A stretch of 64,000 nucleotides of DNA, taken from positions 3,502 through 67,501 of the forward strand of contig JBPOID010000003.1 in assembly GCA_052034805.1 (NCBI GenBank), given 5' to 3'. This DNA comes from Candidatus Tayloriibacteriota bacterium. GTDB lineage: Bacteria; Patescibacteriota; Minisyncoccia; Phycocordibacterales; PALSA-1337. A program made the translations under genes and the position numbers. The notes beneath the pieces are model-generated. The model had not been told where the DNA came from, made no database searches, and saw only the letters and a program-made list of their open reading frames with translations. Of the stretch, positions 7,209 through 64,000 are shown in pieces; position 1 is the stretch's first letter; each line of letters begins with the position of its first letter.

Positions 7209-8249
7209 ATGATCTGTAATGAATTATATAATGGTCAAGGATTAGGAAATCAATTATGGAATTATGTTTTAACCAGAATTATAGCGGATAAAAAAAATAT
7301 AGAATATTCTATTCTGGGAAAAGAAAAATTTAAAGGAGAAGAATTTATTGATATTGATTTTGGCCAGACCTTATCTTGTGGTTTTTCCCCTGAGGGAGGA
7401 CCACCTCATAGATTGCCGAAAGGAATTAAGAATTATTATAGAGAACGCAGAGAAAATCTATTAGATACTAAGATAGATATATCTAGAACTGATTATAAAT
7501 TATTTGATTTACCATTAAATACAAAATTCGACGGTAATTGTCAATCAACAAAATATCTAGAGGGGTATCGAGATAAAATACTATCATGGATAAAAATAAA
7601 AGATAATTACAAAATACAAAAATTAGTAGAAAATAATTGTGTAATACACATACGTTGTGGTGATTTTAAATCAATTAGAGATGTATTTTTACCAAAAGAA
7701 TACTACAAAATGTCTATGGATTATATTAGAAATATAAATCCTGAGGTTAAATTCTATTGCGTAACAGATGAAAAAGAGGAAGCAGAGAAAATATTATCAG
7801 GAATTGAAGTAATAGGTTCTTCTATAGTTAATACTCATGATAATAAAAGAGCATCTCATCATAAAGGTGGAAATATTGCTATTGATTTTTCTATATTAAT
7901 GAATGCAAAATATCTAATAATACCTAATTCTAGTTTCTCTTGGTGGGCAGCATATTTAAATACAAAGAAAAAATTAGTAATAGCTCCAAAATATTGGGCG
8001 GCATATAATAAATCTGATGGTTATTGGTCTACCGAAGATATCATAACTAATGACTTCTTATATATGGACAGAGAAGGTAAAATATATACAGCAAAACAAT
8101 GTTCTGAAGAAAAAGAAGAATATGAATCAAAACATCAAGAAATATTCGTGGAGGGAGATTTGGATAAAAGGAAAATAGTAAGTAAATCAAAAATAATTAA
8201 AAAAAAGATTAAAGATTTTTACTATAATAAAATCAGAAAATATATATGA
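7209..8249 (+). CDS. GT11-family (alpha-1,2-fucosyltransferase-like) glycosyltransferase
   Basis: N-terminal GQGLGNQLWNY, central HIRCGDF (HxRRGD-type motif) and C-terminal SSFSWWAAYLN match the three GT11 motifs. Confidence 0.65.
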   Translation: MICNELYNGQGLGNQLWNYVLTRIIADKKNIEYSILGKEKFKGEEFIDIDFGQTLSCGFSPEGGPPHRLPKGIKNYYRERRENLLDTKIDISRTDYKLFDLPLNTKFDGNCQSTKYLEGYRDKILSWIKIKDNYKIQKLVENNCVIHIRCGDFKSIRDVFLPKEYYKMSMDYIRNINPEVKFYCVTDEKEEAEKILSGIEVIGSSIVNTHDNKRASHHKGGNIAIDFSILMNAKYLIIPNSSFSWWAAYLNTKKKLVIAPKYWAAYNKSDGYWSTEDIITNDFLYMDREGKIYTAKQCSEEKEEYESKHQEIFVEGDLDKRKIVSKSKIIKKKIKDFYYNKIRKYI

Positions 8250-9358
8250 AAGTAAAGATATTTACGATCGCAAATATAAGACCAGATTTTATAGAAATTC
8301 AATATGAATCGATTAAAAAGTTTCTAAAAGATAAAGACTTTGAATTTATTGTCTACAATAATTCATTTAACAATAAAAAAAGATATGAGTTAATTGAAAA
8401 TATATGTAGAAAATTGAAAATAGAAAATATAAAAGTAAATCATTATAGAGATAATAAAAATGATGCTAGTTTAATAGTAGCTGATAGTTTAAATTATATT
8501 TGGAATAAATATCTAAAATATGAAAAAGATATTTTATTGTATATCGATTCAGATATGTTCTTGATAAAAGATACATCAGTGGAAGAATTAATGAGAAATT
8601 ATGATTTCGCTTTTATATCGAACTATCGTGGCAAAGACTTTGAAATAAAGTATCCATGGACTGGTTTTATGATATTTAATATGAATACATTACCCAATCC
8701 AATAGAATTAAAATGGGATACAGGAATAATATTTGGGAATAGAGTTGATGTGGGTGGACTCAATCATTATTATCTATCAAAATATGAAAATAGGATAAGA
8801 ATATTAAATCTGGAGATGTGGACATTAAATGATATAGATTATCGTGATAATAATATTAAAAATATAAAAGGTAGTATAAATGGTAATGCTCAATTATCTT
8901 TATCTATTGATAAAGATAATAAATTGATTGAATTTAATATAAATGATATACATTTATCAAGAAATAGATTATTCCCTTATCAGAAAGAAAATGAAAAATA
9001 TGGAGAAATAGTGAAAAATAATTATATAGAATTCGAAAAATATATTAAAGATAATAATCTAAATTTCCCTAAGCCTATATATATAGATTTGATAAAGACT
9101 TATGAATCAAAATTTAATGATTGTTTTATATTACATTATAAATCAGGCAGTAATTGGTTAAACTTTTCAACAAAAGAATATAATCATAAAAAAACTGAGG
9201 CATTAGTTTATCTTATGAAAAAATTAGGTGTAAATATTACAAAAAACAATATTTATGATGATAATGATCTTTATACTGATGATAAAAAATATATTTATTC
9301 AAGTAAAATGAAATTATATAATTTATATAGAAGAATAATAAATAAAATAATAAAATGA
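8246..9358 (+). CDS. Hypothetical protein, possible GT-A-fold glycosyltransferase (DSD motif)
   Basis: Long ORF co-directional with and overlapping neighbours by 4 nt. Contains YIDSDMF, resembling a DxD motif. No confident family assignment. Confidence 0.4.
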   Translation: MKVKIFTIANIRPDFIEIQYESIKKFLKDKDFEFIVYNNSFNNKKRYELIENICRKLKIENIKVNHYRDNKNDASLIVADSLNYIWNKYLKYEKDILLYIDSDMFLIKDTSVEELMRNYDFAFISNYRGKDFEIKYPWTGFMIFNMNTLPNPIELKWDTGIIFGNRVDVGGLNHYYLSKYENRIRILNLEMWTLNDIDYRDNNIKNIKGSINGNAQLSLSIDKDNKLIEFNINDIHLSRNRLFPYQKENEKYGEIVKNNYIEFEKYIKDNNLNFPKPIYIDLIKTYESKFNDCFILHYKSGSNWLNFSTKEYNHKKTEALVYLMKKLGVNITKNNIYDDNDLYTDDKKYIYSSKMKLYNLYRRIINKIIK

Positions 9359-10152
9359 ATAAAACATACGATATATTTTCATTTTTCAATGAATTAGATA
9401 TGTTAGAAATAAGATTGAATATCTTAGATAAATTTGTAGATTATTTCGTAATAGTAGAAGCAACAGAAACATTTACAGGTCAATCAAAGCCTCTTTATTA
9501 TAAAGAAAACAAAGAGAGATTTTCTAAATGGAATCATAAAATAATACATTATATAGTAGATGATTATCCAAATGATAAAAATATATGCGAATTAGCAAAT
9601 AAAAGTCCTAATGTACCTAAAGATGGACCAATACATTGGCATAGAGAATTTTATCAAAAAGAAAGTATAAAAAAAGCACTTATAGGATTAAATGATGAGG
9701 ATGTATGTTTTGTAGGAGATGTAGATGAGATATGGAATTATAATAAAGATTATCACCTATTAGATAATGATATATTTAAATTGAGATTAGAAGTATATTC
9801 ATACTATTTCAACAATCATTCAAATGAAGAATTTGCTGGAACAATAGTTACAAAATATAAAAATATAAAAAATAATTGCTTAAATCATCTCAGAACTCAT
9901 AATTTAAAATATTTAGACAATGGTGGTTGGCATTTCACTAATATTGGTGGATTAGAACAAATAAAGAAAAAATTAAATGCTTCTTATACGGAAGATAGTT
10001 ATAATACAGAAGATGTAAGAAAAAATCTAGAAAAAAGATTGAATGAAAATAAGGATTATATGGGAAGAAAATTCAAATTCACAATAAGCGAAAAAAACCT
10101 ACCTGTGTATTTATTAGAAAATAAAGAAAAGTATAGTAAACTCTTTAAATAG
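9355..10152 (+). CDS. GT17-like (GnT-III-like) glycosyltransferase
   Basis: N-terminus DIFSFFNELDMLEIRLNIL...VIVEATETFTGQSKPLYY matches the conserved start of Glyco_transf_17 family proteins. Confidence 0.6.
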   Translation: MNKTYDIFSFFNELDMLEIRLNILDKFVDYFVIVEATETFTGQSKPLYYKENKERFSKWNHKIIHYIVDDYPNDKNICELANKSPNVPKDGPIHWHREFYQKESIKKALIGLNDEDVCFVGDVDEIWNYNKDYHLLDNDIFKLRLEVYSYYFNNHSNEEFAGTIVTKYKNIKNNCLNHLRTHNLKYLDNGGWHFTNIGGLEQIKKKLNASYTEDSYNTEDVRKNLEKRLNENKDYMGRKFKFTISEKNLPVYLLENKEKYSKLFK

Positions 10153-10154
10153 AT

Positions 10155-10679
10155 ATGCCATTTTCCTTCAAAAAATTAAATATTCCAGATATTATCCTTA
10201 TAGAGCCTACAGTGATGAAAGATGAGCGTGGTTTCTTTATGGAAACATATAAATCGAGTATTTTTAAAGAGAATAATATACCTGAATTTGTACAAGAAAA
10301 TCACTCTTATTCAATTAAAGGTGTTATTAGAGGTATGCATTATCAGATAGCTCCAAAAGCACAAGGAAAATTAGTAAGATGCGTAAAAGGAGAGATACTT
10401 GACATAGCTCTTGATATAAGAGAAAATTCACCGACAAGATATTCATTTGTTAAGGTAATACTTTCAAGTGAAAATAGATTAGAATTATACATACCAGAAG
10501 GATTTGCACATGGATTCTGTGTATTGAGTGATGAAGCAGAAATAGTATATAAATGCACTTCAGAATATTCAAAAGAACATGAAAGAGGAATATTGTGGAA
10601 TGATAAGAAATTAAACATAGATTGGCCTATAAAAGATCCCGTAATATCAGAAAAAGATAAAATATATAAACCATTATGA
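10155..10679 (+). CDS. dTDP-4-dehydrorhamnose 3,5-epimerase-like cupin (RmlC family) sugar epimerase/isomerase
   Basis: RGMHYQ...QGKLVRCVKGEILDIALDIR...LYIPEGFAHGF is the RmlC cupin core. Confidence 0.8.
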   Translation: MPFSFKKLNIPDIILIEPTVMKDERGFFMETYKSSIFKENNIPEFVQENHSYSIKGVIRGMHYQIAPKAQGKLVRCVKGEILDIALDIRENSPTRYSFVKVILSSENRLELYIPEGFAHGFCVLSDEAEIVYKCTSEYSKEHERGILWNDKKLNIDWPIKDPVISEKDKIYKPL

Positions 10680-11695
10680 AAAAAGTAATAAAGGCAAATT
10701 CAGATCTAAATAATTATAAAGGTAAAAAAGTATTAATAACTGGTGGATTAGGTTTTATAGGTAGCAATTTGGCACATAAACTTGTAGAACTGGGCGCTGA
10801 AGTTACTGTAATAGATAATCTAGCACCTCTTTATGGTGGAAATGATTTCAATATTAAAGATATAAAAGATAAAATAAAAGTTATTATAGGAGATATAAGA
10901 GACTGGCAATTAATAGATAAAATAGTAATAGACAAAGATATTATATTTAATCTTGCAGCTCAAGTAAGTTATATAGATAGTATAAATATCCCCTTTGAAG
11001 ATCTAGATATAAACTGCAAGGGACATTTAACAATACTTGAAAGTTGTAGAAAGCTAAATAAGAATGTAAAAATAGTATTTTCTAGTTCTAGACTTGCATT
11101 AGGTAAAATAATAGAGAATCCTATAACAGAAGAACATCCAACAAATCCATTAAGTCTTTATGGTATACACAAATTAACAGCTGAAAAGTATTGTTATTTC
11201 TATTATAAAAATCATAATCTAAAAACAACAGTATTAAGAATTACTAATCCATACGGAAAAAGACAGCAAATAAAGCATAGTAAATATTCTATACCTGGAT
11301 GGTTTATGAGATTAGCTATGGAAGGTAAAACTATAAGTATTTTTGGTAAAGGTACTCAGAAAAGAGATTATATATACATAGATGATTTAGTAGATGCATT
11401 TCTTTATGCTGGAATATCAGAGAAAACAAATGGTCAAATATATAATTGCGGATCTGGTAAATCTATAGAATTTAGAAAAATGGTAGAAAATATTGTCAAA
11501 TTAGTAGGAAATGGCAAAGTTGAATATATACCATGGCCAGATAATTATGAAAAAGACGAAACAGCAGATAAAATAGAGACTAGTATTAAAAAAATCTATA
11601 AAGACACAGGTTGGAAACCTAAAACGGAATTAAAAAATGGTTTAAAAGAAATGTTCAATTATTATAAAAATAATAAGGATAAATATATCGACTAA
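10676..11695 (+). CDS. NAD-dependent nucleotide-sugar epimerase/dehydratase (extended SDR)
   Basis: Rossmann motif VLITGGLGFIGSNL at the N-terminus and YxxxK-type SDR architecture; 339 aa. Confidence 0.8.
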   Translation: MKKVIKANSDLNNYKGKKVLITGGLGFIGSNLAHKLVELGAEVTVIDNLAPLYGGNDFNIKDIKDKIKVIIGDIRDWQLIDKIVIDKDIIFNLAAQVSYIDSINIPFEDLDINCKGHLTILESCRKLNKNVKIVFSSSRLALGKIIENPITEEHPTNPLSLYGIHKLTAEKYCYFYYKNHNLKTTVLRITNPYGKRQQIKHSKYSIPGWFMRLAMEGKTISIFGKGTQKRDYIYIDDLVDAFLYAGISEKTNGQIYNCGSGKSIEFRKMVENIVKLVGNGKVEYIPWPDNYEKDETADKIETSIKKIYKDTGWKPKTELKNGLKEMFNYYKNNKDKYID

Positions 11696-11700
11696 ATAAT

Positions 11701-12453
11701 ATGTTAATAGTGAAATTAACTGGTGGATTAGGTAATCAGCTTTTCCAATATGCAAACGGTAGAGCTATTTCCATAAAAAATAAAACCCCCCTATTAATAG
11801 ATGCTAGTTGGTATAAAGGAAGAATAGATCGTCAATATCTTTTGGATAAATATAATATAAAAAGTAGAATAGCAACAAAATTAGAAATCTTCTTAACAAA
11901 AATATTTAATAAGAAAAATTATATTCAGGGAGATTTTCAAAGTGAAAAATATTTTGAAAATATAAAGAATATAATATCAGAAGATTATTCAATAAAAGAA
12001 CCAATAAAAGATAAGGAGGATTTGATAAATAAAATAAAATCTACAAATTCAGTAAGTATTCATATGAGAGGTGGTGATTATGTAAGAGGCAAAAGAAGTT
12101 CTTTCCATGGTACATGCTCACCTGAATATTACTATAAAGCAATAGAAGAAATTAAATTAAATATAGATTCTCCATTTTTCTTTATCTTTACAGATGATAT
12201 ACCATGGGCAAAAAATCATATAAAATTTCCTGAACCTAATATATTTATAAGTAATGAAGAAAATAAACCTTATGAAGAGATTATTCTTATGTCATATTGT
12301 AAGAATAATATTATAGCCAATAGTACTTTTAGTTGGTGGGGAGCATGGTTAAATAATAATAAAAATAAAATAGTAATTGCCCCTAAAAAATGGTTTAATA
12401 ATGATTCAATAGACACAAAAGATATATTACCTAAACAATGGATAAAAATATAA
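11701..12453 (+). CDS. GT11 alpha-1,2-fucosyltransferase-like glycosyltransferase
   Basis: MLIVKLTGGLGNQLFQYANG (GT11 motif I), HMRGGDY (HxRRGD), NSTFSWWGAWLN (motif III). Confidence 0.85.
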   Translation: MLIVKLTGGLGNQLFQYANGRAISIKNKTPLLIDASWYKGRIDRQYLLDKYNIKSRIATKLEIFLTKIFNKKNYIQGDFQSEKYFENIKNIISEDYSIKEPIKDKEDLINKIKSTNSVSIHMRGGDYVRGKRSSFHGTCSPEYYYKAIEEIKLNIDSPFFFIFTDDIPWAKNHIKFPEPNIFISNEENKPYEEIILMSYCKNNIIANSTFSWWGAWLNNNKNKIVIAPKKWFNNDSIDTKDILPKQWIKI

Positions 12454-13418
12454 GGATAATCGATATAGAACCAGAAATAAGTGTATTAATGCCTGTATAC
12501 AATGGTGATAAATATTTGAAAGAATCTATAGATAGTATACTTTCTCAAACTTTTACTAATTTTGAACTGATAATAGTAAACGATGGTTCTAAAGATAATA
12601 GTCTAGAAATATTGAAATCTTATTCTGATCCGAGAATCATCATTATAGATAATAAAGTAAATAAAGGACTCATAGAAAGTCTCAATATAGGCTTATCAAA
12701 ATGTCGTGGAAAATATACAGCCCGAATGGATCAAGATGATATTTCCCTACCAGACAGACTACAGATACAGTTTGATTTTATGGAAAAAAATAAAGAAATA
12801 GATCTAGTTGGCGGTTGGACAGAATGCATAAATAAAAATGGTGATTATATAAAGACGTCTAGAAGTCCAGAAAATCCATGGATTATACGTTATGAATTAA
12901 TATTTAATAATGTGATGTTCCATAGTTCAATATTTTTCAAAACAGATATTGTAATAAAAAATGGAGGCTATGATAAGAAAGCCACTCATTCAGAAGATTA
13001 TGATATGTATTCTAGACCAAATAAAGAATTGATGTGTAGTAATATACAAAGAGTATTATTCAAATATAGAATACATAACGAATCTATTACTGGCAGTACG
13101 AATACACAACAAATAGTGCATGAAAATGCTTTAAATGTAGCTTTTAGAAATATTAACAAGTATATAATAATGGATAGAAATACCTTTGATTATCTCAAAG
13201 ATGTCTTAATAATAAAAACACCTAGTGATAAAATAACCATTGATATATTAATAAAATCTATTAAAATTCTAAAAAAGATAACGGAGAACTTCATAAAGAT
13301 TAATAATCTAGATAAAAATAATAGGAAAAATATAATTGATAAATATAAAGGAAAAAGAAATTCATTTATTAAAAATTATTTTATTGGTAAATATCATAAA
13401 ATAATTAAATGGGTATAA
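12438..13418 (+). CDS. GT2-family glycosyltransferase
   Basis: ISVLMPVYNGDKYLKESIDSILSQTFTNFELIIVNDGSKDNS, DQDD motif. Confidence 0.88.
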   Translation: MDKNIRIIDIEPEISVLMPVYNGDKYLKESIDSILSQTFTNFELIIVNDGSKDNSLEILKSYSDPRIIIIDNKVNKGLIESLNIGLSKCRGKYTARMDQDDISLPDRLQIQFDFMEKNKEIDLVGGWTECINKNGDYIKTSRSPENPWIIRYELIFNNVMFHSSIFFKTDIVIKNGGYDKKATHSEDYDMYSRPNKELMCSNIQRVLFKYRIHNESITGSTNTQQIVHENALNVAFRNINKYIIMDRNTFDYLKDVLIIKTPSDKITIDILIKSIKILKKITENFIKINNLDKNNRKNIIDKYKGKRNSFIKNYFIGKYHKIIKWV

Positions 13419-13454
13419 TAAAAACAAATAGATACTATTTAGAAATATAAATAT

Positions 13455-14408
13455 ATGAATAAATTTAATACCCCTATTATATTTTTAATATTCAAAAGAA
13501 AAAAAGAAACTTCTTTGGTATTTGAGGAAATAAGAAAGATAAAACCCAGTAAACTCTTTATAGTAGCTGATGGACCTAGAAACGAGGAAGAGAAAATACT
13601 GTCATCTGAGACAAGAAAAATCGTAGATAAAATAGACTGGGAATGTGAAATTTATAGAAATTATTCAGATATAAATCTAGGATGTAGAGAAAGAGTAATA
13701 TCAGGTATTAATTGGGCTTTTGAGAAAATAGACCGAGCTATTATATTAGAAGATGACTGTTTGCCTAATCAAGATTTCTTTAGATTTTCTGAAGAAATGT
13801 TAGAGAAATATAAAGACAATGAGAATATAATGCATATAGGTGGTAGTAATTTCCAAGATAATAATAAAGAATTTATAAACTCAATCAAAGGAGATAGCTA
13901 TTATTTTTCAAATATAGCTCAGATATGGGGCTGGGCTACATGGAAAAAAGCTTGGAATAAATATGATTCTAATATGATCACTTGGGAAAAAATAAAAGAT
14001 AAAAAGGATTTTATAAAACATTTCCCTAATAAATATATATATCAATATTGGAAATATTTTTTCGAAAAGATGCATAGAAACGAATTTGATACTTGGGATA
14101 TAGCTTGGACATATACATGTTTCAAAGAAAATGGATTATGCATAATGCCAAAAGTGAATCTAATAGAAAATACAGGTAGTGATGCATCAACAGCAACACA
14201 TAAATCCAATAATCTAACTCATATAAAGACATCAGCATTAATATTCCCTCTCACACATCCCAATATAATTAAAGAGAATAGAATCGCAGATAAATATACA
14301 TATAAAAGAGTATATGGGGTTAATACCAATATTAGAAATGTATTAAAATCTTATATGAAACATTATTTACCTTCTCTTTTTGAGAAAATAAAATCTTTCA
14401 TGAAATAG
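13455..14408 (+). CDS. Putative GT-A-fold glycosyltransferase with GnT-I (GT13)-like EDD...DFF motif
   Basis: IILEDDCLPNQDFFRF resembles the EDDLEVAPDFF catalytic DxD block of GlcNAc-transferase I. Family assignment is tentative. Confidence 0.45.
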   Translation: MNKFNTPIIFLIFKRKKETSLVFEEIRKIKPSKLFIVADGPRNEEEKILSSETRKIVDKIDWECEIYRNYSDINLGCRERVISGINWAFEKIDRAIILEDDCLPNQDFFRFSEEMLEKYKDNENIMHIGGSNFQDNNKEFINSIKGDSYYFSNIAQIWGWATWKKAWNKYDSNMITWEKIKDKKDFIKHFPNKYIYQYWKYFFEKMHRNEFDTWDIAWTYTCFKENGLCIMPKVNLIENTGSDASTATHKSNNLTHIKTSALIFPLTHPNIIKENRIADKYTYKRVYGVNTNIRNVLKSYMKHYLPSLFEKIKSFMK

Positions 14409-46023: not shown

Positions 46024-46099
46024 TGGAGCCGATGATCGGGATCGAACCGATGGCCTCCCCATTACCAATGGGGTGCTCTACCAACCGAGCTACATCGGC
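46024..46099 (-). tRNA. tRNA-Thr (anticodon GGT), CCA encoded
   Basis: Reverse complement GCCGATGTAGCTCGGTTGGTAGAGCACCCCATTGGTAATGGGGAGGCCATCGGTTCGATCCCGATCATCGGCTCCA: 7-bp acceptor, D arm GCTC/GAGC, anticodon loop TTGGTAA, T arm ATCGG-TTCGATC-CCGAT. Confidence 0.85.
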
Positions 46100-46152
46100 G
46101 ATATAAACCTTATATTACAATAAAATATAAAAATTAACTATCTTTTAATATC

Positions 46153-47472
46153 CTATTTAGGCAATTCAACTGTAACTGTTGTACCAACATTTAATTCTGA
46201 AGAAAGAAAGATTGTACCTCCATGAAGTTCTATTATTTTCTTTGATATATATAGACCTATACCACTTTCATTTGGTTCTATAGATATAGCATTCTTCGAT
46301 CTATGAAGTCTATAGAAAACATAAGGCAAATCACCTGAAGCAATACCTATTCCGGTATCTCTAACAGTAATTCTTACAAAAGAAGGTATTTCTTCTACTG
46401 TAATAGTTACATGACCTTTCGGAGAATACTTTATTGCATTATCTATTATATTTGCAAGAGCAGGTCTCATTTTCTCTCTATCTGCATTTATAAGGAAAGA
46501 GCTAGGAGCAATGAAAGAAACTTTAACTGATTTCTTTATTATAAGGAAATTTAATTCAGCAATGATAGATTGTATTATTCCGACAATATCTACTTTTTCT
46601 ATATATATTTTTACCGAATTCTCTGTATCTTCTGCGGTTTTTAGCATTTGATTCACAACTTCTATAGCACCTTTTATTCTATCCATACCAGCATCTATAA
46701 GAGATATAGTCTCTTGTGGTAGGGATTGTGAGGACTTTATCATTTCTAATGTCCATTTTACAGCTGATAAAGGTGTACGTAATTGATGTTGTGCAACGCT
46801 CAAGAAATCCCCTTTCAGGCTATCTATTTGTACAGTTTCTGCTAATTTCTTTGCAGTCTCTTCATTTCTATATTTATGATACATTATTTCTATAATCAAA
46901 CTATATACAAAATAAGATATAACACCTATAAGAAATGTTTCTATTATATGTTTAGCAATAAGTGCAGAATCAATACTCGCAGATGGAGTGAAAACTATCA
47001 TAAAAGCAAAAGCTATAGTTATGACCATGCCCATTATTCTGGTATATATTCTATCCAAGAATACAGAAGTAGATATTATAGGAAAAAATAAAGTAAATAT
47101 AAAAGAACTATTAGTACCGCCTGTTATATATATTACATATAAGAAAAATAATACATAAGCATATATAGCAAGTACAAATAATGCATTCTTTTTCAAGAAT
47201 TCATTTAATGTAACTAATATAAAATACACTATACCTATCGCAAATAAAGCCATAACAGCATTATCTATATTCTCATTAAGCCATGTAAAGTATTGAGGGA
47301 GAAAATAAACAAAAAAACCAACAACAACTGGTATAAGTGCCCCCATCAAGCCTAGAGCATAATAATATTTCTTGAGTTGTAGGGCCGATAATTCTTGTGA
47401 GCTTTTATTAACTTTATTATCTGTATTTTTTACTATCTCATTATTTATATTATTTTTATTTAAAGGTTCCAT
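46153..47472 (-). CDS. Sensor histidine kinase with ~6 N-terminal TM helices
   Basis: H-box SVAQHQLRTPLSAV; ATP-binding NIIDNAIKYS, DTGIGI, GIGLYISKKIIELHGG. Confidence 0.85.
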   Translation of the reverse strand: MEPLNKNNINNEIVKNTDNKVNKSSQELSALQLKKYYYALGLMGALIPVVVGFFVYFLPQYFTWLNENIDNAVMALFAIGIVYFILVTLNEFLKKNALFVLAIYAYVLFFLYVIYITGGTNSSFIFTLFFPIISTSVFLDRIYTRIMGMVITIAFAFMIVFTPSASIDSALIAKHIIETFLIGVISYFVYSLIIEIMYHKYRNEETAKKLAETVQIDSLKGDFLSVAQHQLRTPLSAVKWTLEMIKSSQSLPQETISLIDAGMDRIKGAIEVVNQMLKTAEDTENSVKIYIEKVDIVGIIQSIIAELNFLIIKKSVKVSFIAPSSFLINADREKMRPALANIIDNAIKYSPKGHVTITVEEIPSFVRITVRDTGIGIASGDLPYVFYRLHRSKNAISIEPNESGIGLYISKKIIELHGGTIFLSSELNVGTTVTVELPK

Positions 47473-47500
47473 TTATATTTTTACTAAAATTTGTACTATG

Positions 47501-47575
47501 CGCGGTCGACGGGACTCGAACCCGCAACCTCTCCCGTGACAGGGGAGTGCTCTAACCAAATTGAGCTACGACCGC
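47501..47575 (-). tRNA. tRNA-Asp (anticodon GTC)
   Basis: Reverse complement GCGGTCGTAGCTCAATTTGGTTAGAGCACTCCCCTGTCACGGGAGAGGTTGCGGGTTCGAGTCCCGTCGACCGCG; anticodon loop CTGTCAC. Confidence 0.85.
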
Positions 47576-47659
47576 ATAATAAAACTAATAAAATAAGCTC
47601 ATGAACAGAGCAATATCTTATTTTTGTTATTATACACGATTCTATGAATTTTTAAAGGG

Positions 47660-47733
47660 TGTCGGCGGAAGGGATCGAACCTTCGACCTTGGGCTTATGA
47701 GTCCCACGCTCTAGCCAACTGAGCTACGCCGAC
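47660..47733 (-). tRNA. tRNA with CAT anticodon (Met/fMet, or Ile2 if lysidinylated)
   Basis: Reverse complement GTCGGCGTAGCTCAGTTGGCTAGAGCGTGGGACTCATAAGCCCAAGGTCGAAGGTTCGATCCCTTCCGCCGACA; anticodon loop CTCATAA. Three consecutive G-C pairs in the anticodon stem hint at an initiator type. Confidence 0.75.
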
Positions 47734-47755
47734 ATATGAATTGTTGAAATAATTG

Positions 47756-47827
<72 letters not shown>

Positions 47828-51120: not shown

Positions 51121-51222
51121 ATATAAATTAAGCTTTATTAATAATCCAATATCATGAATAATCTGAATTTATAGGGTCCATTCATTTCAAAATATGGATT
51201 TATAAATATATCATAAAAAAGA

Positions 51223-51246
51223 AAAATCGCCAATAGTGGCGATTTT
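51223..51246 (-). terminator. Rho-independent terminator immediately downstream of the 16S rRNA transcription unit
   Basis: AAAATCGCCA-atag-TGGCGATTTT perfect 10-bp stem. On the minus strand it is followed by TTTTCTTTTTTATGAT. Located 12 nt past the 3' half of the rRNA processing stem. Confidence 0.7.
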
Positions 51247-51258
51247 CTTTTACTGTAC

Positions 51259-51276
51259 TTTATTTTGTTCCGTTCA
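51259..51276 (-). other. 3' half of the pre-16S rRNA processing stem (pairs with 53065..53082)
   Basis: TTTATTTTGTTCCGTTCA is the exact reverse complement of TGAACGGAACAAAATAAA at 53065..53082. The two flank the 16S gene in a single transcript orientation, typical of an RNase III processing helix. Confidence 0.7.
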
Positions 51277-51439
51277 CTCGGAGAGTATCTCTATAGAGGA
51301 TACCCTCCTGTGCCCTTTATCTTGCGGGCTAAGTGTTCACTTTAAAGATGTAGAACAATAATCTTTGCTTGTGATAAATAAATATCAACAAAAATCGACT
51401 CGGTCAGATAATCTGAGTAAACTCAGACATATCGTATGA

Positions 51440-53060
51440 TCAAATTGAAATAATCCACGAGCAGCTTCCGCTACCCGTGCCTTGTTACGACTTACTCCCT
51501 GTCATTGAGCTTACCTTAGGCCGCGACAAGCGCGGACTTCGGGTACTCCCAACTCCCTTGAGTTGACGGGCGGTGAGTACAAGACTTGAGAACGTATTCA
51601 CCTCGGTATAGCTGACCCGAGATTACTAGCAATTCCGGTTTCATGAGGTCGAGTTGCAGACCTCAATCCAAACTGACGCACCCTTTATAAGGATTTGCTC
51701 CGCCTTTTATCGGCATTGCTTCCCGTTGTAGGTGCGATTGTATCGCGTGTGTAGCCCAGGGTATCAGAGGGACATGCTGACCTGGCGTCATCCTCACCTT
51801 CCTCCCACGACGCAGAGCACAATTATATATTGAAAAATGAATCTCTAAGAAAATTGGTTCGCTTCTCTTGCGGTCGGGAGACCTTTTCGGTCCGCTTTCG
51901 CTCTCGAAAAGGCTCCCTCCCCGGAAGCTCACACAATTTTCTAAATATAATTCCGCGCTATGTCGTGGGCAGTCTCGCCTGACAAATATAACAGGCAACG
52001 AGGGTTGCGTTCGTTACCCCACTGAAGGGAACAACTCAAGCCACGAACTGACGACGGCCATGCATCACCTGCCTAACTGTCTTGCGACGACCAAAGTTTC
52101 TTCTGGTCTTCAGCTAGGTTTCAAACCCTGGTAAGGTTCTTCGTTTGTCATCGAATTAAACCACATGATCCACTGCTTGTGCAAGTCCCCGTCTATTCCT
52201 TTGAGTTTTAACCTTGCGGTCGTACTACCCAGGCGCTTCTCTTAACGCGTTAGCTAAGCCTCTCAGAGGGTCGATACTCCGAAAAGCGAGAGAAGATCGT
52301 TTAGGGCGTGGACTACTGGGGTATCTAATCCCATTCGCGACCCACGCTTTCATGTTTCAGTGTCAGGAGTGCTCCAGTTTCTTGCCTTCGCTTTTGGTGT
52401 TCCCCATAATATCAACGCATTTCACCGCTACACTATGAGTTCCAGAAACCCCTCGCATCCTCTAGTTGTACCGTTTCCTTTGCATGTCCCCGGTTAAGCC
52501 GAAGAATTTAACAAAAGACTAATACAACCACCTACACATCCTTTACGCCCAATGATTCCGGATAACGCTTGAGGCACTCGTATTACCGCTGCTGCTGGCA
52601 CGAGTTTAGCAACCTCTTATTCGCCAAGTACTATCAATAAACTTTCTCCCTGGCAAAAGGTTTTTACGTCCCTAGGGACTTCATCAACCACGCGGCGTCG
52701 CTCCGTCAGGCTTTCGCCCATTGCGGAAGATTCTCGACTGCGGCCACCCGTAGGTGTATGGACCGTCTCTCAGTTCCATCGGTGGGGGTCACCCTCTCAG
52801 GTCCCCTAAGCGTCTTAGCCTTGGTAGGCCATTACCCTACCAACTAGCTGATACTGAACAGGCCCATCCAAAAGCGATAAATCTTTACTCTTTCGAGACC
52901 ATCAAGTATTAACTCATCTTTCGATGAGGTATCCCTGACTCTTGGGTTGGTACCTGCTTATTACTACCTCGTCTGCCACTGTGTATTGCTACACCGTTTG
53001 ACTTGCATGCCTTATCCACGCCGCCAGCGTTCATCCTGAGCTAGGATCAAACTCTTAACT
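51440..53060 (-). rRNA. rrs: 16S ribosomal RNA (about 1.62 kb, with internal expansion and atypical 3' tail; boundaries approximate)
   Basis: Reverse complement contains the 5' end AGAGTTTGATCCTAGCTCAGGATGAACGCTGGCGG (53035..53055), the 806R site GGACTACTGGGGTATCTAATCC, decoding-centre GTACTCACCGCCCGTCA, the 1492 region AAGTCGTAACAAGG, and helix 45 with GGAA loop. No 23S/5S follows. Confidence 0.92.
51806..51968 (-). other. ~160-nt AT-rich expansion/insertion in 16S helix 40 region
   Basis: Conserved flanks ...GACGCCAGGTCAGCATG/GGAGGAAGGTGAGGATGAC and ...GAGACTGCCCACGAC are separated by ~165 nt, against ~12 nt (CCGGTGACAAACC) in typical 16S. The flanks CCACGAC...GTCGTGG can pair to extend the helix. 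Confidence 0.6.
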
Positions 53061-53064
53061 AAAA

Positions 53065-53082
53065 TGAACGGAACAAAATAAA
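53065..53082 (-). other. 5' half of the pre-16S processing stem
   Basis: Exact 18-nt complement of 51259..51276; lies ~5 nt upstream of the mature 16S 5' end. Confidence 0.7.
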
Positions 53083-53347
53083 AAACAGTAATACTTTTAG
53101 GAATTATTATCTTATATTTTGAATTCTTTTAGATGCTATAGAGTTTGAAACAGCTCATGTTAATGTGAATATATTAACTTGGAATCATTGTTTCAAAATA
53201 AACATTAAACTTGCACATATTCAATCAAAAGTTGAATTCGAATACGTTCTTTCTAATGCATAACTTAAACTTAATAAATTTTCAAAAAACATGCTCTTCT
53301 TGGAGCGTAGATACCATTCTACTTATAGATAGAATAAAGTCAAGTAC

Positions 53348-54610
53348 TTAACGACTTTCTAGAGAATTTACCTCATTTTCCTTGATTTTCTTTATAATTC
53401 TCCATCTATGTCTGAAATGGCTTATTGTTACATAACTTATAAATGCCAATGCCAATACTATATAAACGATATAATCTATTACAAATCTAATAAGTGAAAA
53501 AGATGATCTTATTTCTATTGATTCATCTCTTATATTGCCCGCCTTATCTATAGCACGCACTATAACCTGTAAATTACTAGTATCAGTTACTGGTACTTGG
53601 AATGGACTTTCTGTTTGTATAAATACTGGGGAAACAGTTAGAGGTTGAGACTTATCTATAATACCAACTTCATAATGATCAATGCCAGAAAGATTATCTG
53701 TGGTAAAGAAAGAAACTAGGGTTCTTTGTGAAAGTATTGTCGCCGCTAATAAATAATTAGCTTCGGGTTTAAAATCTGCAGGAGGAGCAGTATCTATCCT
53801 TATTAGGAAATGTCCTGTACTTCCCCATTCACCCTTCGCTCCACCCTTGTGAGCCTTCACGTGGAAATACCATAGACCATCCGCCAAATCAGTAAATCCT
53901 TTACTCGTATCATTAGAATTTATTACACTATCTGGAATAGTAGAAAATTTATTATCTAAAACATAACTAAAACCATCTACATCTGTATCACGATCCCATG
54001 ATACAACCGGACTATTATTATTATACCAATCATCTTGTACTGGATGTGTTTCTGAGAAAATTCTCACACCATCTGGAGCCTTGGTAATTATTTCATAATT
54101 AGCTCTGCCTAGATCTGCAACAGCTTCAGTACCCATACCATCATTCAAAAGTATTTTTGAATCCGAACGAATACTTACTGTAGCATTACCTGTTTTCAAT
54201 GCCTTAAATGTTATAGTACCAATAAGACCTGATTTTGTAGTTATACCATCAGGTATAACTCCAACATATCTAGCCATACCTCTTTCATTATCATATTTTG
54301 GTGGTTCAACCCATATACCGATAATCGATTTACCTCCAGATGGTTTTATTATTGATAATTTATTTTTATCAAAATTAACTACTATTTCTACACCATTTAT
54401 ACTAGAATTTTTTGTATTTATAATAATAGGAACTTCAAATGTCGAACCTTCAACGAAACTCCCAGAACGAGGAGATAATGATACTTCAACTTTCGGAAGT
54501 AATTTCATAGCATTTACTGTTACTGTTTCTGCATGAAGAGGTAGAGAAAATGACATTGATATAGTCAATGCAATAATTAAAAATAAATATGATTTAATTC
54601 TATTAATCAT
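53348..54610 (-). CDS. Cell-surface protein: signal peptide, cohesin-like beta-sandwich module, second conserved domain, C-terminal TM anchor
   Basis: Signal peptide MINRIKSYLFLIIALTISMSFSLPLHA. Module VEVSLSPRSGSFVEGSTFEVPIIINT...IGTITFKALKTGNATVSIRSDSKILLNDGMGTE has cohesin-like periodicity. C-terminal helix FVIDYIVYIVLALAFISYVTISHF + RHRWR. Paralogous to the next two genes. Confidence 0.55.
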   Translation of the reverse strand: MINRIKSYLFLIIALTISMSFSLPLHAETVTVNAMKLLPKVEVSLSPRSGSFVEGSTFEVPIIINTKNSSINGVEIVVNFDKNKLSIIKPSGGKSIIGIWVEPPKYDNERGMARYVGVIPDGITTKSGLIGTITFKALKTGNATVSIRSDSKILLNDGMGTEAVADLGRANYEIITKAPDGVRIFSETHPVQDDWYNNNSPVVSWDRDTDVDGFSYVLDNKFSTIPDSVINSNDTSKGFTDLADGLWYFHVKAHKGGAKGEWGSTGHFLIRIDTAPPADFKPEANYLLAATILSQRTLVSFFTTDNLSGIDHYEVGIIDKSQPLTVSPVFIQTESPFQVPVTDTSNLQVIVRAIDKAGNIRDESIEIRSSFSLIRFVIDYIVYIVLALAFISYVTISHFRHRWRIIKKIKENEVNSLESR

Positions 54611-59245: not shown

Positions 59246-62200
59246 CTATTGATTAGAGCTTGTATCAGAAGTTGCTGGTACGGTAACTACCGCTTCTGGT
59301 ACTGGAACAGAAGCAGATGTATCAGGAGTTATAGATACTGGAGCTACTTCTGTATTTGTCTGTACTGAATTATTTGTATTAGATATTGTATTGGTATTTG
59401 TATTAACATTATTATCTGTATTTATTACAGTATTTGTCTCTGTCTGATTTTCAGTATTAGGTACTGATGTATTTACTTCTGTATTATTAGAAGAACCAGA
59501 AGATTGACTTGTATTAGGCGTTATAACTGGAGTTGAAGTTGGAGTAGATGTTGAAATAGTTGTAGTTATAGTATTTAATATTGGAGAAACTATTTCTGTA
59601 TTTCCAATATAAGGAGTTGTTGTTGATATTGTTGGTGTTGTTATTATTGGATTTACTATAACTGTACTTGTTGCTGTTGAAGTAGCATTTAATGTATTTG
59701 CTTCTGTATTTACCATATCAGAATCTTTTGAAGTAAATAACTTTGCATTCTTCACAGCGAATGCTGTCCAACTAAATTCTATATCAACAGGTGCTGGTCT
59801 ATTTAGAATAATTGTGAATCCTTTTACACTTCTCTTTGTTATTAGAGATCTTATATCCTTATCAAATATTATATCTTCAATAGATTCTGTAGAAGTAGCT
59901 TCGTCTACACTAATCGAAGCATTAACGATAGGAGTATCTATATATTCTCTATCAAAGACAATATCGACTTTCTTTGCACCCTTCTTTATAAGAGCATTGC
60001 CTGCAGTATCGACGGTAAAGTATGGTCTTCCAAAGAAGATAGTATCAGAAAGTATAGATACCATAGTTGAAGTGGCACCTATAGAATCAACTAACAATCC
60101 TCCAGAGAATAGAGCTTGTTTGCTTATATTTATAGAATCAAATGCTGCAATATTTGCTGTTATAGAACCCTTGAATAAAGCATTTCCAATATTATCAAAT
60201 GACAACAATACAGTCTTTGTAGATGTAGCTATTGTAGGCAATGTAGATGTAGCTTCTGTAGAAGTTGATGAGTCTGTATTTATATCTACAACTGAAGCTA
60301 ATATATTCTTGCTCAAAGAGAATATACCATCATTTCCTAATTCCATAACTATAGAACCATTCTTTATAATAGATGTTTCAAGTGTATTTGTCTTTATGTT
60401 CTTAGCAGATATAGTTATACCTTCTACTGATTCTGATTTTAATATTCTAGTTATAACATTTGAACTTAGAACATCTGATACTGCTGTAATTTTATCTGCA
60501 AATACTTCAGATCTAGCAGAAGCCATGGTATCTCTCTGTTTCTTTACATTTGAAAGATAAGATAAGAGATCTGCTTGATGTGAATCATATATTCCAGAAG
60601 CAAATCCTGCTAATTCATTTGTAGAAGTAGCTATGTCTTGAGGATTAATATCTGAATTAATATTTGAATTAGTATTTGAATCTAGAAGAGATTTCAATTG
60701 ATCACCATTCAAAGCTAGAGAATCATCAGCGGAATCTCCTAGATAATCAACTAGATTTACGAACATTGTTATAGTTGTACATTTTCTATTTGGTATTGCA
60801 ATTCCACCCGCTGGACAATCGACTAGATTTGCAGTGTCAATACCAGATAATGCTTTTCCTATAACATGACCAGCTAAAGTTGCCTTCATAGCATAACCAG
60901 GAATACTTGATGGAGTAAGTTTATCACCTTGTCTTATCATTCCATTTTCTGTTGTAACCTTTACAGGTACACGACCTATAAGAGCTATTGGATAAGAATT
61001 CTCTGTATATGCACCAGCTACGAATCCAGGATCAGTTGAAACAACTCCCATTACATCTCCTTGATATTGATATGTCGTTTTCTTTACACCATGATTATTC
61101 TGTGGATCTATAGCTACAACATCTCCGAAATCTAATTCTTCTTGTGATGTATATCTTTCTGCAAGATCGGCACCAGAAGTATTGAATGTTCCTCCAGTCT
61201 GAGCAAATATATCTCCAGCAGAACTTACGCGGAACATAGATAATCCATCTGATTGCAAATCAATAAGATCTTTATCTTTTGTAACCTTGTATTCATACAA
61301 TACTGGAGTTATAACAGGTCTCTGAGGATAAGCCATAGCAGAACCACCATTGTTATTCCATGTATCAGTATATATACCTCCATAAGATGGGAATGATCTT
61401 CGGAAATTAAAGTTTATAGAAAGCCAAGTATCATTTGGTCCTGGATTTATAAGTCCACCCGATTTTGCAATTTCTCTTGTTGTAGATGTTGACAATGCAG
61501 CTTGAGTAGGAGCGGTTCTAACCTCTGCAGATATACCTCCTAGAGCAGTCATACCGACATTTGACTTCCATACCAAGGTAGAATTTGAATCAAGTTTTGT
61601 ACCCACAGGAGAAAGGTCAAATTGTTCAGATTTATATATACCACTAGGTACCCAACCAGCATCATATGTTTGAACAAGACTAGTTGCAGAAGTTGTAGCA
61701 CCTCCCAATATAATTACGAATTTTCCATCAGATCTTTGGAATGCAACTCCTCCAGAGTTAGCAGTAGCAGAGTTTGCAAGAGTAGGTCCAGCTACAAACG
61801 ATCCTATAGTTGATTGTGGTCCCAAAGCAGTAAGAGCACCAGCCTGTTCTATATAAATATTTGTAGTGTTCTGACCAGCTAGAGCGGCAGTACCAGCACC
61901 TTCTACTATGAGCCATGAACCATCTGGACGAGGTAATGCATAACCACCCAATCCTACTCCATTACTTGATGTAAATGCAGGACCAGTTGTTGTTATTTGG
62001 TTTTGAATAGGATTGTAAACACCAGTACCAGTTGAACCTGCACAAGAAGCAGCTGTAGCACCTCCACGAACTATAATCCATTGTCCATCAGATCTTTGGA
62101 ATGCAAATGCTCCTGGTCCAGTACCTCCAGTGTTTGTAGGAGCTCCAGTAAATGTGAAATCCATAGTATAAGGATCGAAGTTATTCGTAATAGTGTTAGG

Positions 62201-64000
62201 AGTAGGACAAGTTTTACCTCGAGGATATGTAGGCATACCAGGAATAAATAGATATGTACCATTTGGACGAGGCACCCATAGAGATCCAGGACCAACAGCA
62301 GCAAATGTTGCAGCAGTTGTCAGAGGACGAGGTCCAACTGTCATAGTATTATTCACAGGATCATATATAGAAGAATTACTTGTAAGACCTCCATGCATTA
62401 TAAGTACACGTCCATTAGGAAGTGGTATAGCAGAAGCACCGATACCAGCACCAGTTGTACCAGATACACTGGCTAAGTTCGGACCATCTATAAATGTATT
62501 TGCTACTGGATCATATATATTTGTTGTAGAAGTCGCAGCGAAACTACCTTCACCAAGAATAATTAAGAATTTGCCATCTGGCCTCTTGAATGCAAATCCT
62601 CCTGTACCTATAGGTGCTGTAGGAGAAACTGTATTTAGAGTTGTTGTACCAGTTGCTTCATCATATATTTGAGAGTTTGGAATAGATGAACTTGCAGATA
62701 TAATTACGAATTTTCCATCAGGCCTCTTCATAACTATAGTAGTTGAAGCTGTAGGAACATAAAGTCTTGGGGCATTCTGGAATGAGCCATTGTAGAAATT
62801 AGGATTTGTAGCATTTATAGTAGAGCCATATCCAACACCAGCAGCCAAAGCCAATGCATTTGCACGATTCTTATCATTTGTAATATTTATAGCAGCAGGA
62901 CCAGAATCTGGAGCAGTTGAAGAAGATACGGCATTTCCAAAATCAAATTGAGTTCTATGAAGTGATGTACTATTATCTACAACAATTGATGATATAGTTG
63001 GATCAGCATTCACACGACGATATCTGGTTATACCTCCCTTTCTTAATCCCCATTCTTGATCAAGGAATCTCGGTAATTCACGTTGGAATGTAAATTTGAA
63101 TTGAATAAGATTGTCAGCTGTTGTAGTTGCACGTATAAGATCTCCACTATTTCCTATTGGTCTATATTCTGCAGAAGAACAGGAAGATGGACTTGTAGCT
63201 GTTCTTACATAAACTTTAATAGTTCCTTCACTATTTGTAGTCCAATTCAAAGTAGAATCAGGAGAAAGATTTGTACTACTTATACATTCACTTTCATAAT
63301 ATGCATCTTGTTGATTGGCACGATTAGTACCTGTAATAAAGTTCATATCATATATATCCATGGTGTTCTTGAATCCACCATTTATAACAGCATATCTACC
63401 ATCAGGTAACATAAATGCAGTTAGACCATAACCACCAGTATTAGATAGAGTCAAACTAGTATTAGAGAATTGTGGTGCAAGATAATTACTTGTACCAGGT
63501 ATACCAGATCCAGCATCTATAACATTTATCATATTTCCTACTGTGGTACTTGCTGAAAGTAATAGATAATTACCATCTTGTCTCCATATAGATTGAGCCC
63601 CATCAGAAAGTATAGATGTAGGTCCAACACCTAGATCACCAGAGAATCCTCCTGTTGAACCAGTTGTTGTTCCGACAGGTTTGTAAATAAATGATTGAGA
63701 AGCAGGACCTGGTAATGTAAGGAATGTACCATCTTGTCTTCTTATAGAGAATGCTCCATTAGCTATTCTTACTGGCGTAGTAGGTCCTGTAAGCATAGTA
63801 CCTGTAATAATGTTTGAGGCAACTGTGTTTCCAGAATAAGGATTATATACATATGTTGTATTAGTACCTCCTTGATAAATAAGGAAAGTACCATCATCTC
63901 TTTGTAATGCATGTGTACCAGCACCCCAAGTACCAGTTATACCTATACTTACATTTGTATATCCTGCATTTGTTGCAGCAGAAGGGTTATATATACCCCA
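59246..64000 (-). CDS. Giant (>1580 aa) Kelch-type beta-propeller repeat surface protein with Thr/Ser/Asn-rich C-terminal tail; 5' end beyond window edge
   Basis: At least 12 repeats of ~45-50 aa with YDP/YNP...N and R.DG..L(I/V)..GG hallmarks (e.g. FAFQRSDGQWIIVRGG, NIYDPVANTF, SSIYDPVNNTM). The frame stays open upstream of the first Met (63796) to position 64000 and continues in Kelch-like sequence (LQRDDGTFLIYQGG). Last ~170 aa are TSTPTSTPVITPNTSQSS...NTNTNTISNTNN low complexity. Confidence 0.75.
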   Translation of the reverse strand, partial: WGIYNPSAATNAGYTNVSIGITGTWGAGTHALQRDDGTFLIYQGGTNTTYVYNPYSGNTVASNIITGTMLTGPTTPVRIANGAFSIRRQDGTFLTLPGPASQSFIYKPVGTTTGSTGGFSGDLGVGPTSILSDGAQSIWRQDGNYLLLSASTTVGNMINVIDAGSGIPGTSNYLAPQFSNTSLTLSNTGGYGLTAFMLPDGRYAVINGGFKNTMDIYDMNFITGTNRANQQDAYYESECISSTNLSPDSTLNWTTNSEGTIKVYVRTATSPSSCSSAEYRPIGNSGDLIRATTTADNLIQFKFTFQRELPRFLDQEWGLRKGGITRYRRVNADPTISSIVVDNSTSLHRTQFDFGNAVSSSTAPDSGPAAINITNDKNRANALALAAGVGYGSTINATNPNFYNGSFQNAPRLYVPTASTTIVMKRPDGKFVIISASSSIPNSQIYDEATGTTTLNTVSPTAPIGTGGFAFKRPDGKFLIILGEGSFAATSTTNIYDPVANTFIDGPNLASVSGTTGAGIGASAIPLPNGRVLIMHGGLTSNSSIYDPVNNTMTVGPRPLTTAATFAAVGPGSLWVPRPNGTYLFIPGMPTYPRGKTCPTPNTITNNFDPYTMDFTFTGAPTNTGGTGPGAFAFQRSDGQWIIVRGGATAASCAGSTGTGVYNPIQNQITTTGPAFTSSNGVGLGGYALPRPDGSWLIVEGAGTAALAGQNTTNIYIEQAGALTALGPQSTIGSFVAGPTLANSATANSGGVAFQRSDGKFVIILGGATTSATSLVQTYDAGWVPSGIYKSEQFDLSPVGTKLDSNSTLVWKSNVGMTALGGISAEVRTAPTQAALSTSTTREIAKSGGLINPGPNDTWLSINFNFRRSFPSYGGIYTDTWNNNGGSAMAYPQRPVITPVLYEYKVTKDKDLIDLQSDGLSMFRVSSAGDIFAQTGGTFNTSGADLAERYTSQEELDFGDVVAIDPQNNHGVKKTTYQYQGDVMGVVSTDPGFVAGAYTENSYPIALIGRVPVKVTTENGMIRQGDKLTPSSIPGYAMKATLAGHVIGKALSGIDTANLVDCPAGGIAIPNRKCTTITMFVNLVDYLGDSADDSLALNGDQLKSLLDSNTNSNINSDINPQDIATSTNELAGFASGIYDSHQADLLSYLSNVKKQRDTMASARSEVFADKITAVSDVLSSNVITRILKSESVEGITISAKNIKTNTLETSIIKNGSIVMELGNDGIFSLSKNILASVVDINTDSSTSTEATSTLPTIATSTKTVLLSFDNIGNALFKGSITANIAAFDSINISKQALFSGGLLVDSIGATSTMVSILSDTIFFGRPYFTVDTAGNALIKKGAKKVDIVFDREYIDTPIVNASISVDEATSTESIEDIIFDKDIRSLITKRSVKGFTIILNRPAPVDIEFSWTAFAVKNAKLFTSKDSDMVNTEANTLNATSTATSTVIVNPIITTPTISTTTPYIGNTEIVSPILNTITTTISTSTPTSTPVITPNTSQSSGSSNNTEVNTSVPNTENQTETNTVINTDNNVNTNTNTISNTNNSVQTNTEVAPVSITPDTSASVPVPEAVVTVPATSDTSSNQ

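Follow-up and report, generated by a model that had tools for sequence, protein, structure and literature searches.

What becomes of a hairpin in 16S ribosomal RNA (rRNA) that is 166 nucleotides (nt) long where most related bacteria have 14: is it an intron, a piece cut away as the rRNA matures, or a lasting arm of the ribosome? The question is raised by a 64,000-nt stretch of contig JBPOID010000003.1 from a Candidatus Tayloriibacteriota bacterium (the whole stretch is referred to here as the window), in which a minus-strand gene for 16S rRNA (51443-53062) carries an element of this size at helix 40. We describe the element as a lineage-specific, structurally constrained elongation of helix 40 in the 16S rRNA of a Paceibacteria bacterium that would be retained in the mature rRNA. 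The anatomy of the element, and that it is not an intron, we hold with high confidence; the statement in full, retention included, is put forward tentatively, as the reading that we favour among several.

A 166-nt hairpin at helix 40

The Rfam covariance model of bacterial small-subunit (SSU) rRNA, RF00177, covers the gene from end to end (window positions 53062 to 51443, model positions 1-1533, 1327 bits, not truncated), which measures 1620 nt as it stands and 1454 nt without helix 40. In the cmscan alignment, 153 nt (51809-51961, on the minus strand like every feature of the element below) are read as a loop insertion where the model has two positions, within the hairpin at model positions 1152-1167. 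By the standard 16S numbering we take this hairpin to be helix 40 (approximately 1161-1175 in E. coli), in variable region V7. Counted as a whole, it spans 166 nt (51804-51969) between the flanks GACUGCC and GGAGGAAGGUG, compared with 14 nt in most relatives and 15 nt in E. coli. A preliminary description, made from the letters of this DNA, had already placed an expansion of helix 40 at 51806-51968; the covariance-model alignment arrives at the same helix, with limits that differ by 2-3 nt. The conserved 16S core is untouched by the element and, as the gene reads, the element is transcribed with the rest of 16S.

The same description had called the insert AT-rich. This is correct for its two middle arms (17-37% GC), and fails both for the insert as a whole, which has 44.4% GC against 29.1% in the window, and for its distal core (nt 51-115 of the hairpin), which reaches 58.5%. 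For comparison, the 16S gene outside helix 40 has 49.9% GC and its leader 24.5%.

The element folds into a covarying rod

Together with short flanks, the element is predicted to fold into one long hairpin of -77.1 kcal/mol, compared with -49.8 +/- 4.2 kcal/mol for shuffled sequences (z = -6.5, none of 200 shuffles folding as well). From the base up, a stem of 8 base pairs (bp) is followed by stems of 3, 3 and 8 bp, parted by 1x1 mismatches. The first of these pairs CCCACGAC (51962-51969) with GUCGUGGG (51804-51811), and folding and covariation alike back the earlier proposal that the flanks CCACGAC and GTCGTGG pair and let the insert protrude; above it, the proximal AU-rich helix is formed by GGAAUUAUAU (51945-51954) and AUAUAUAAUUGU (51819-51830). 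Beyond the basal stems lies an asymmetric internal loop, which in the window copy only holds a small side hairpin or internal-loop segment in the minimum-free-energy structure (GAGAUUCAUUUUUC, 51832-51845, a gap in the five other long forms introduced below). The next layer is a 9-bp middle helix built on AAAAUUG/CCAAUUUU (5' strand AGAAAAUUG, 51934-51942, with an AAAAU core that is invariant in the six long forms; 3' strand CCAAUUUUCU, 51848-51857), followed by a variable helix. The outer part comprises a conserved internal loop and a GC-rich distal helix with an AU-rich tip (GGGAG...CUCCC with its terminal loop, 51876-51917), in which 8 of 16 pairs show compensatory changes. Overall, the predicted structure is an irregular rod with about 60 pairs and almost no branching, which runs coaxially with the original helix-40 stem.

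Six long forms, namely the window copy and those of loci L173, L122, L072, L056 and L241, were aligned (alignment A2) with a mean column identity of 73%. RNAalifold draws 61 consensus pairs from this alignment, and in 24 of these a compensatory double change occurs at least once. The share of paired cells is 93.0%, against 82.5 +/- 1.2% in shuffles, and the 24 pairs changed on both sides compare with 11.3 +/- 2.3 in shuffles, none of 500 of which reached 24; these counts come from six sequences only, and a structure derived from the same alignment favours itself somewhat. Sliding the 3' partners by 1-3 columns leaves just 1-6 double-changed pairs, so that the margin over the slid controls is large. 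To judge from these substitutions, the rod structure is under selection.

The conserved internal loop is made of a 5' half, CGG(G/U)GAGG (51916-51923), in which C55, G56, G57, G59 and A60 are invariant, and a 3' half, CCGA(C/A/G)CGCAAG (51867-51877). Positions 58 and 116 covary, as G-C in two sequences, U-A in three and U.G in one, and this pairing replaces the local 58-118 pairing given by RNAalifold. Drawn in this way, the loop is left with an invariant tandem of G59.A115 and A60.G114 and with an invariant CAAG bulge, the 3' half supplying both the bulge and the partners of the tandem. A kink-turn was rejected for this loop by inspection: the tandem G.A has Watson-Crick pairs on both sides, and the CAAG bulge lies three pairs off, on the 3' strand.

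Part of the rod is shared more widely. In 19 family members, the basal 21 layers of the hairpin line up collinearly; layers 1-8 are invariant Watson-Crick pairs and layers 9, 10 and 13 are often A.C, A.G and C.U, recurrent non-Watson-Crick layers as in ordinary rRNA helices. Layers 9-21 of the long form are, furthermore, collinear with the short forms of relatives.

A graded, lineage-wide elongation

Relatives were collected with the 3' flank of helix 40 as the probe, in a scan that took a single genome for each species and returned 120 loci, nearly all from metagenome-assembled genomes (MAGs) of Paceibacteria/Parcubacteria labelled Nomura-, Taylor-, Kaiser- and Zambryskibacteria and similar. 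A metagenome scan with the 5' stem-base pattern returned mostly chance matches (16S genes made up 4 of 120 among the matches listed), and the host species is recorded in three public runs only; the pyruvate kinase gene that neighbours the 16S is carried by runs SRR34217542, SRR34217545 and SRR12487013. The nearest relative, L064, is a MAG titled "Candidatus Nomurabacteria" with 96.2% identity on 495 core columns outside helix 40. Since the relatives are nearly all Paceibacteria/Parcubacteria and L064 stands this close, the host is, by its 16S sequence, a bacterium of the Paceibacteria (Parcubacteria) within the Candidate Phyla Radiation (CPR). This agrees with the preliminary remark that insertions in 16S are a hallmark of some reduced-genome lineages, as they are reported in 42-48% of CPR 16S genes (PMC9297842, PMC11270868).

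Helix 40 could be measured in 114 related 16S loci; 69 of them have 14 nt (CUCCC-UCAC-GGGAG or similar), another 31 have 34-73 nt and the other 14 have 95-226 nt, and the 166 nt found here bear out the early estimate of some 165 nt in place of a short hairpin. All 45 distinct extended forms fold as base-closed hairpins, of which 41 have a single hairpin loop. As we read the listed sequences, the stem bases of these extended hairpins differ in sequence and fall into about a dozen kinds; helix 40 has therefore been lengthened independently many times, and it is a general growth point in the Paceibacteria group. Rods of 95-226 nt that are unrelated to the one in the window occur in other Paceibacteria (L113, L083, L035, L041, L009/L098/L087, L025/L030, L051 and L103), those of L051 and L083 with 20-25 uninterrupted pairs.

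In a rough neighbour-joining tree of the 3' half of 16S, with helix 40 removed, one clade has an extended helix 40 (45-174 nt) in every member, and its sister groups have 14 nt. The basal ~20 layers of the window rod are common to the 45-67-nt helix 40 of all close relatives, and the long form itself, with its distal ~110-nt module, is common to the window and at least five relatives further off, L173 (identical to L178), L122, L072, L056 and L241, at 149-174 nt. This long form is scattered on the tree, each bearer having a short form as its nearest relative: the window and L064, at a core identity of 96.2%, have helix 40 of 166 and 62 nt, and L173 and L082, at 96.7%, have 165 and 53 nt; the window and L173, at 89.9%, have 166 and 165 nt. 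The distal parts of the insert are 61-72% similar between long forms, below the similarity of the 16S cores, and thus give no sign of recent transfer. The simplest reading of these sequences would be an old long form whose distal ~110 nt were deleted several times; repeated gain of these ~110 nt, for example by recombination, is less likely, although the tree is weak. What had first been described as an insertion is no one-off event: helix 40 is elongated by degrees throughout the lineage, and the window copy stands at the long end.

Two observations on database titles were made along the way. MAGs titled Fodinibius sp., Acidimicrobiales and Azotimanducaceae (L069, L074 and L061) hold contigs with a Paceibacteria-type 16S gene that has the same flank, a 14-nt helix 40 and no anti-Shine-Dalgarno sequence; these contigs are probably mis-binned. 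Many loci titled "uncultured Candidatus Saccharibacteria", moreover, group with Paceibacteria on the tree.

Retention in the mature rRNA or removal during maturation

Whether the rod stays in the ribosome is the point on which the interpretation turns, and here we lean, with some reserve, toward retention in the mature 16S rRNA. Helix 40 is surface-exposed beside uS2, and in the 100S dimer of Staphylococcus aureus it contacts the hibernation-promoting factor HPF of the neighbouring ribosome (PMC5620080). With helix 40 exposed in this way on the 30S head, a longer tip can point into solvent, and the rod would project from the solvent side without disturbing the ribosome. It would then persist as a bacterial expansion segment of the mature 16S, tolerated by the ribosome and kept folded by selection, with a conserved distal loop that is perhaps bound by a protein. 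The sequences favour this fate in several ways. The lengths of helix 40 form a continuous, nested series. The helix is irregular in the manner typical of rRNA, and both compensatory changes and unpaired bases that never vary are found as far as the tip. Finally, the GC content of the insert (44%, core 58.5%) is near that of mature rRNA (50%) and far from those of the genome (29%) and the leader (24.5%).

Several observations weigh on the other side, in addition to the small number of aligned sequences noted above, and together they make a quite plausible case for an RNase III-type intervening sequence. RNase III, or a comparable nuclease specific for double strands, would cut the stem during 16S maturation and the piece would be discarded without religation, leaving a mature 16S rRNA in two pieces of ~1.1 kb and ~0.36 kb, which the stump of helix 40 and the tertiary structure of the head would hold together. 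As in known intervening sequences, the apical loop of a conserved helix is replaced and the ends of the replacing segment pair with one another; the long form is sporadic among close relatives, as is usual for intervening sequences, and a pattern of this kind speaks against an important function. At its base the rod has a stack of 8+3+3+8 pairs, interrupted by three 1x1 mismatches; this quasi-continuous stack of ~25 layers is long enough for RNase III. Indeed, the host uses a long duplex of leader and trailer around its 16S: the leader arm (53065-53091, minus strand) and the trailer arm (51250-51276, minus strand, 167 nt beyond the 16S 3' end) form inverted repeat I1, a 27-nt duplex with 93% complementarity that brackets the 16S as a pre-16S processing stem and shows duplex-directed rRNA processing in this host. 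The intervening sequences in the 16S rRNA of Campylobacter and Helicobacter are excised. Their descriptions for these two genera are among the references given in PMC5041132. Insertions in CPR rRNA were found to be removed from transcripts according to what PMC11270868 and PMC9297842 relate of Brown et al. (2015), and short ones without an open reading frame (ORF) have been suggested to be RNase III intervening sequences (PMC11270868). Conservation along the rod (0.61-0.72) is similar to that of the excised leader and trailer (0.58-0.79, with a shuffled baseline of 0.55-0.62), and this comparison favours neither fate.

Clipping sits less well with other features of the family. The lengths of helix 40 cover the range from 34 to 226 nt without a break, the short forms being nested in the long ones, instead of being present or absent; the helix is irregular, with mismatches recurring every 3-9 pairs; the invariant unpaired nucleotides and the compensatory changes, which reach the distal tip, exceed the needs of one cleavage site; and the core is GC-rich in a genome of 29% GC. 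None of these points is decisive. No RNase III gene was found among ten mid-sized ORFs scanned in the window, a region too small to be informative.

By analogy with hibernation-type ribosome pairing, which uses helix 40 in S. aureus (PMC5620080), retention could also be given a more specific function, which we consider unlikely. In the mature ribosome, the rod would be an arm of ~60 pairs whose conserved loop docks a lineage-specific protein or another ribosome, projecting, by a rough estimate, ~150-200 Å from the 30S head beside uS2. It would rank among the largest bacterial small-subunit expansion segments, in a lineage with shrunken rRNA that has lost the anti-Shine-Dalgarno sequence, and helix 40 would be a point at which the ribosomes of Paceibacteria grow in general, through about a dozen expansions that arose independently and reach up to 226 nt.

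Neither an intron, nor a gene, nor a mobile repeat

Splicing was addressed by searching the insert region (51780-51995) against Rfam at E<=10, which found no family in the insert and only a chance SNORD48 fragment in the flank. A group I intron was rejected, as RF00028 has no match in this region at that threshold; the same model scores 54-61 bits on group I introns in the 16S genes of L072, L241, L056 and L007. A group II intron was rejected as well, there being no Rfam group II match and only 153 nt, where the D1-D6 type needs several hundred; RF01998 detects a group II D1-D4 fragment in L072. A bulge-helix-bulge intron does not fit a base made of an invariant 8-bp helix followed by 1x1 mismatches, as opposed to two 3-nt bulges around a 4-bp helix. 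The introns of the relatives lie near the 16S 3' end (L072 at 1765-2051 and 1293-1378, L241 at 1508-1841, L056 at 590-874 and L007 at 3272-3604), and the 16S gene of the window has none of the group I/II introns seen in relatives of the helix-40 family.

That the element is all the same spliced, its helix-40 halves being religated through an unrecognised ribozyme or through an endonuclease and ligase as in archaeal bulge-helix-bulge introns, is in our view very improbable. True introns are abundant in CPR 16S genes, relatives of the host carry group I and II introns in theirs, and insertions are reported to be absent from CPR transcripts (PMC11270868). The lack of any group I/II model match even at E<=10 speaks against it, however, as do the size and simplicity of a 153-nt rod that cannot contain a group I/II catalytic core, the 8-pair helix and 1x1 mismatches at its base in place of a bulge-helix-bulge, and the resemblance to ordinary hairpins of 45-67-nt forms that have the same base.

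The insert holds no gene either, as the preliminary description had noted in finding no ORF such as a homing endonuclease: four mechanically called ORFs overlap the insert and none has a Pfam match at E<=1, and 153 nt leave no room for a homing endonuclease. An exact look-up of three mechanically called ORFs that span the insert found no other contigs on record. A dispersed mobile repeat was rejected, as neither the window nor any of 243 loci holds a second copy. Lastly, an assembly artefact or a decaying 16S pseudogene, to which an uncultivated source and rRNA genes that are hard to assemble might point, can be dismissed as barely conceivable, given homologous long forms at the identical site in five independent assemblies (L173/L178, L122, L072, L056 and L241), with compensatory changes, and a 16S gene that otherwise fits the model end to end at 1327 bits.

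Comparison with known systems

With 153 nt against two model positions, the element is an insertion sequence in the sense used for CPR rRNA (100 nt or more beyond the length in E. coli or the SSU model, inside an rRNA gene of a CPR host), a kind found in 48% of CPR 16S genes (Tsurumaki et al. 2024, PMC11270868). It falls within the uncharacterised short subclass, having no group I/II match, no ORF and fewer than 200 nt, and it resembles the short ORF-less CPR insertions (Brown et al. 2015; Tsurumaki et al. 2022 and 2024, PMC9297842, PMC11270868) in its host group, a single-copy 16S gene, and the lack of an intron match and of an ORF. In their accessible text, the two surveys (PMC9297842, PMC11270868) describe no structure, helix-40 site or graded family, their hot spots 16IS1-10 being placed in figures only, and they treat insertions as discrete events, unlike the graded family at helix 40. 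The group I/II introns with homing endonucleases of CPR 16S occur in the same genes and lineages, near the 16S 3' end in the relatives; unlike them, the element is a simple hairpin that has no catalytic core or ORF and is too short for either intron type.

With RNase III intervening sequences (23S helices 25 and 45 in Salmonella, Coxiella and Campylobacter; 16S in Campylobacter helveticus and Helicobacter canis), the element shares the replacement of the apical loop of a conserved helix, a long stem formed from its own ends and a size of ~100-200 nt, as well as an occurrence in reduced genomes with one rRNA operon. It is likewise sporadic among close relatives, the nearest relatives of the window and L173 (96-97% core identity) having forms of 53-62 nt. 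In contrast to such sequences, it has no S23p-type ORF, its lengths are continuous and nested, and its distal internal loop is conserved. To our knowledge, 16S helix 40 has not been reported as a site of intervening sequences.

The traits of an expansion segment are found as well: the element grows from the tip of a surface-exposed helix and leaves the conserved core unchanged, and its lengths are graded and nested (14, 34-73 and 95-226 nt), with 21 basal layers collinear in 19 sequences. Helix 40 is not, as far as we know, an expansion site in eukaryotes. The eukaryotic expansion segments, ES9 and ES39 of Asgard archaea, the H54a 'handle' of mycobacterial 23S rRNA and the expansions of 5S rRNA (PMC7812874) share with the element growth at a surface tip with an intact core, a rod-like shape, lineage-variable length and older parts nested at the base. 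They differ from it in that its distal module is often lost and its retention in mature 16S is only proposed. As far as sequence can show them, the element has all traits of an RNase III intervening sequence and likewise all those of an expansion segment, and the feature that parts the two is presence in the mature rRNA.

The 16S gene and its surroundings

The 16S 3' end (51443-51456) reads GGAUUAUUUCAAUU and lacks the CCUCC of the anti-Shine-Dalgarno sequence, which, like the short core of the gene, suits a CPR host. CCUCC is missing from all 98 readable 3' ends of Paceibacteria type (loci L004-L123), and the sole locus that has it, L021, is labelled Peribacteria; loss of the anti-Shine-Dalgarno is already known for about half of Parcubacteria (PMC9297842). 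A tie between helix-40 length and this loss was rejected, as these 98 ends lack CCUCC at any length of helix 40. Several peripheral 16S hairpins are shorter than in the bacterial model, with gaps at model positions 70-95, 178-200, 452-480, 1118-1140 and 1432-1455, and CCUGUUAUAUUUGUCAGG (51978-51995) stands in for the distal part of the helix that precedes helix 40. The 1454-nt core agrees with the small CPR rRNAs of PMC9297842.

Two sigma-70-like promoter matches lie upstream of the leader arm of the duplex (53168-53343), and a terminator-like hairpin follows the trailer arm (51222-51247), so that the 16S gene looks like a stand-alone transcription unit. Neither 23S nor 5S is found anywhere in the 64-kb window, and the rRNA genes are therefore unlinked. 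The 16S trailer (51277-51442) is 79% identical to that of L173, compared with only ~90% identity between the 16S cores; it has conserved blocks, for example CUGACCGAGUCGAUUUUU and AAAGAUUAUUG.UCUACAUCUUUAAAG, which are perhaps processing signals, and no Rfam family match.

A gene for a cohesin-domain protein (53348-54610, minus strand) lies immediately upstream of 16S. On the other side of 16S, 3.6 kb downstream and on the same strand, is a group of tRNA genes (46024-47827: Met-CAT twice, Asp-GTC and Thr-GGT), with pyruvate kinase, an amidase and a 201-amino-acid ORF in between. Further afield, a 1516-amino-acid ORF (59246-63796, minus strand) has no Pfam match, and the first quarter of the window holds genes for glycosyltransferases (families 17 and 11) and methyltransferases (7209-14408, plus strand), a possible cell-surface gene cluster.

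Implications

The element is real, and of an already known kind, that of the CPR rRNA insertions; its novelty is modest. The analysis adds that the outgrowth of helix 40 is graded and spans a clade, the element standing at its long end, and that the fold is backed by covariation, with a conserved loop motif and a distal module that is often lost. Published work on CPR rRNA has centred on introns and homing endonucleases and has left short ORF-less insertions as an uncharacterised class. At least one such class is a folded, selected and length-variable outgrowth of a single surface hairpin, found across a clade, and not an insertion event. As helix 40 lies in V7, insertions here distort amplicon lengths and alignments for this lineage. 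If the rod is retained, as we tentatively propose, bacteria with reduced genomes would form expansion segments in a way similar to that of eukaryotes and Asgard archaea; were it clipped out, such bacteria would run on a split 16S rRNA.

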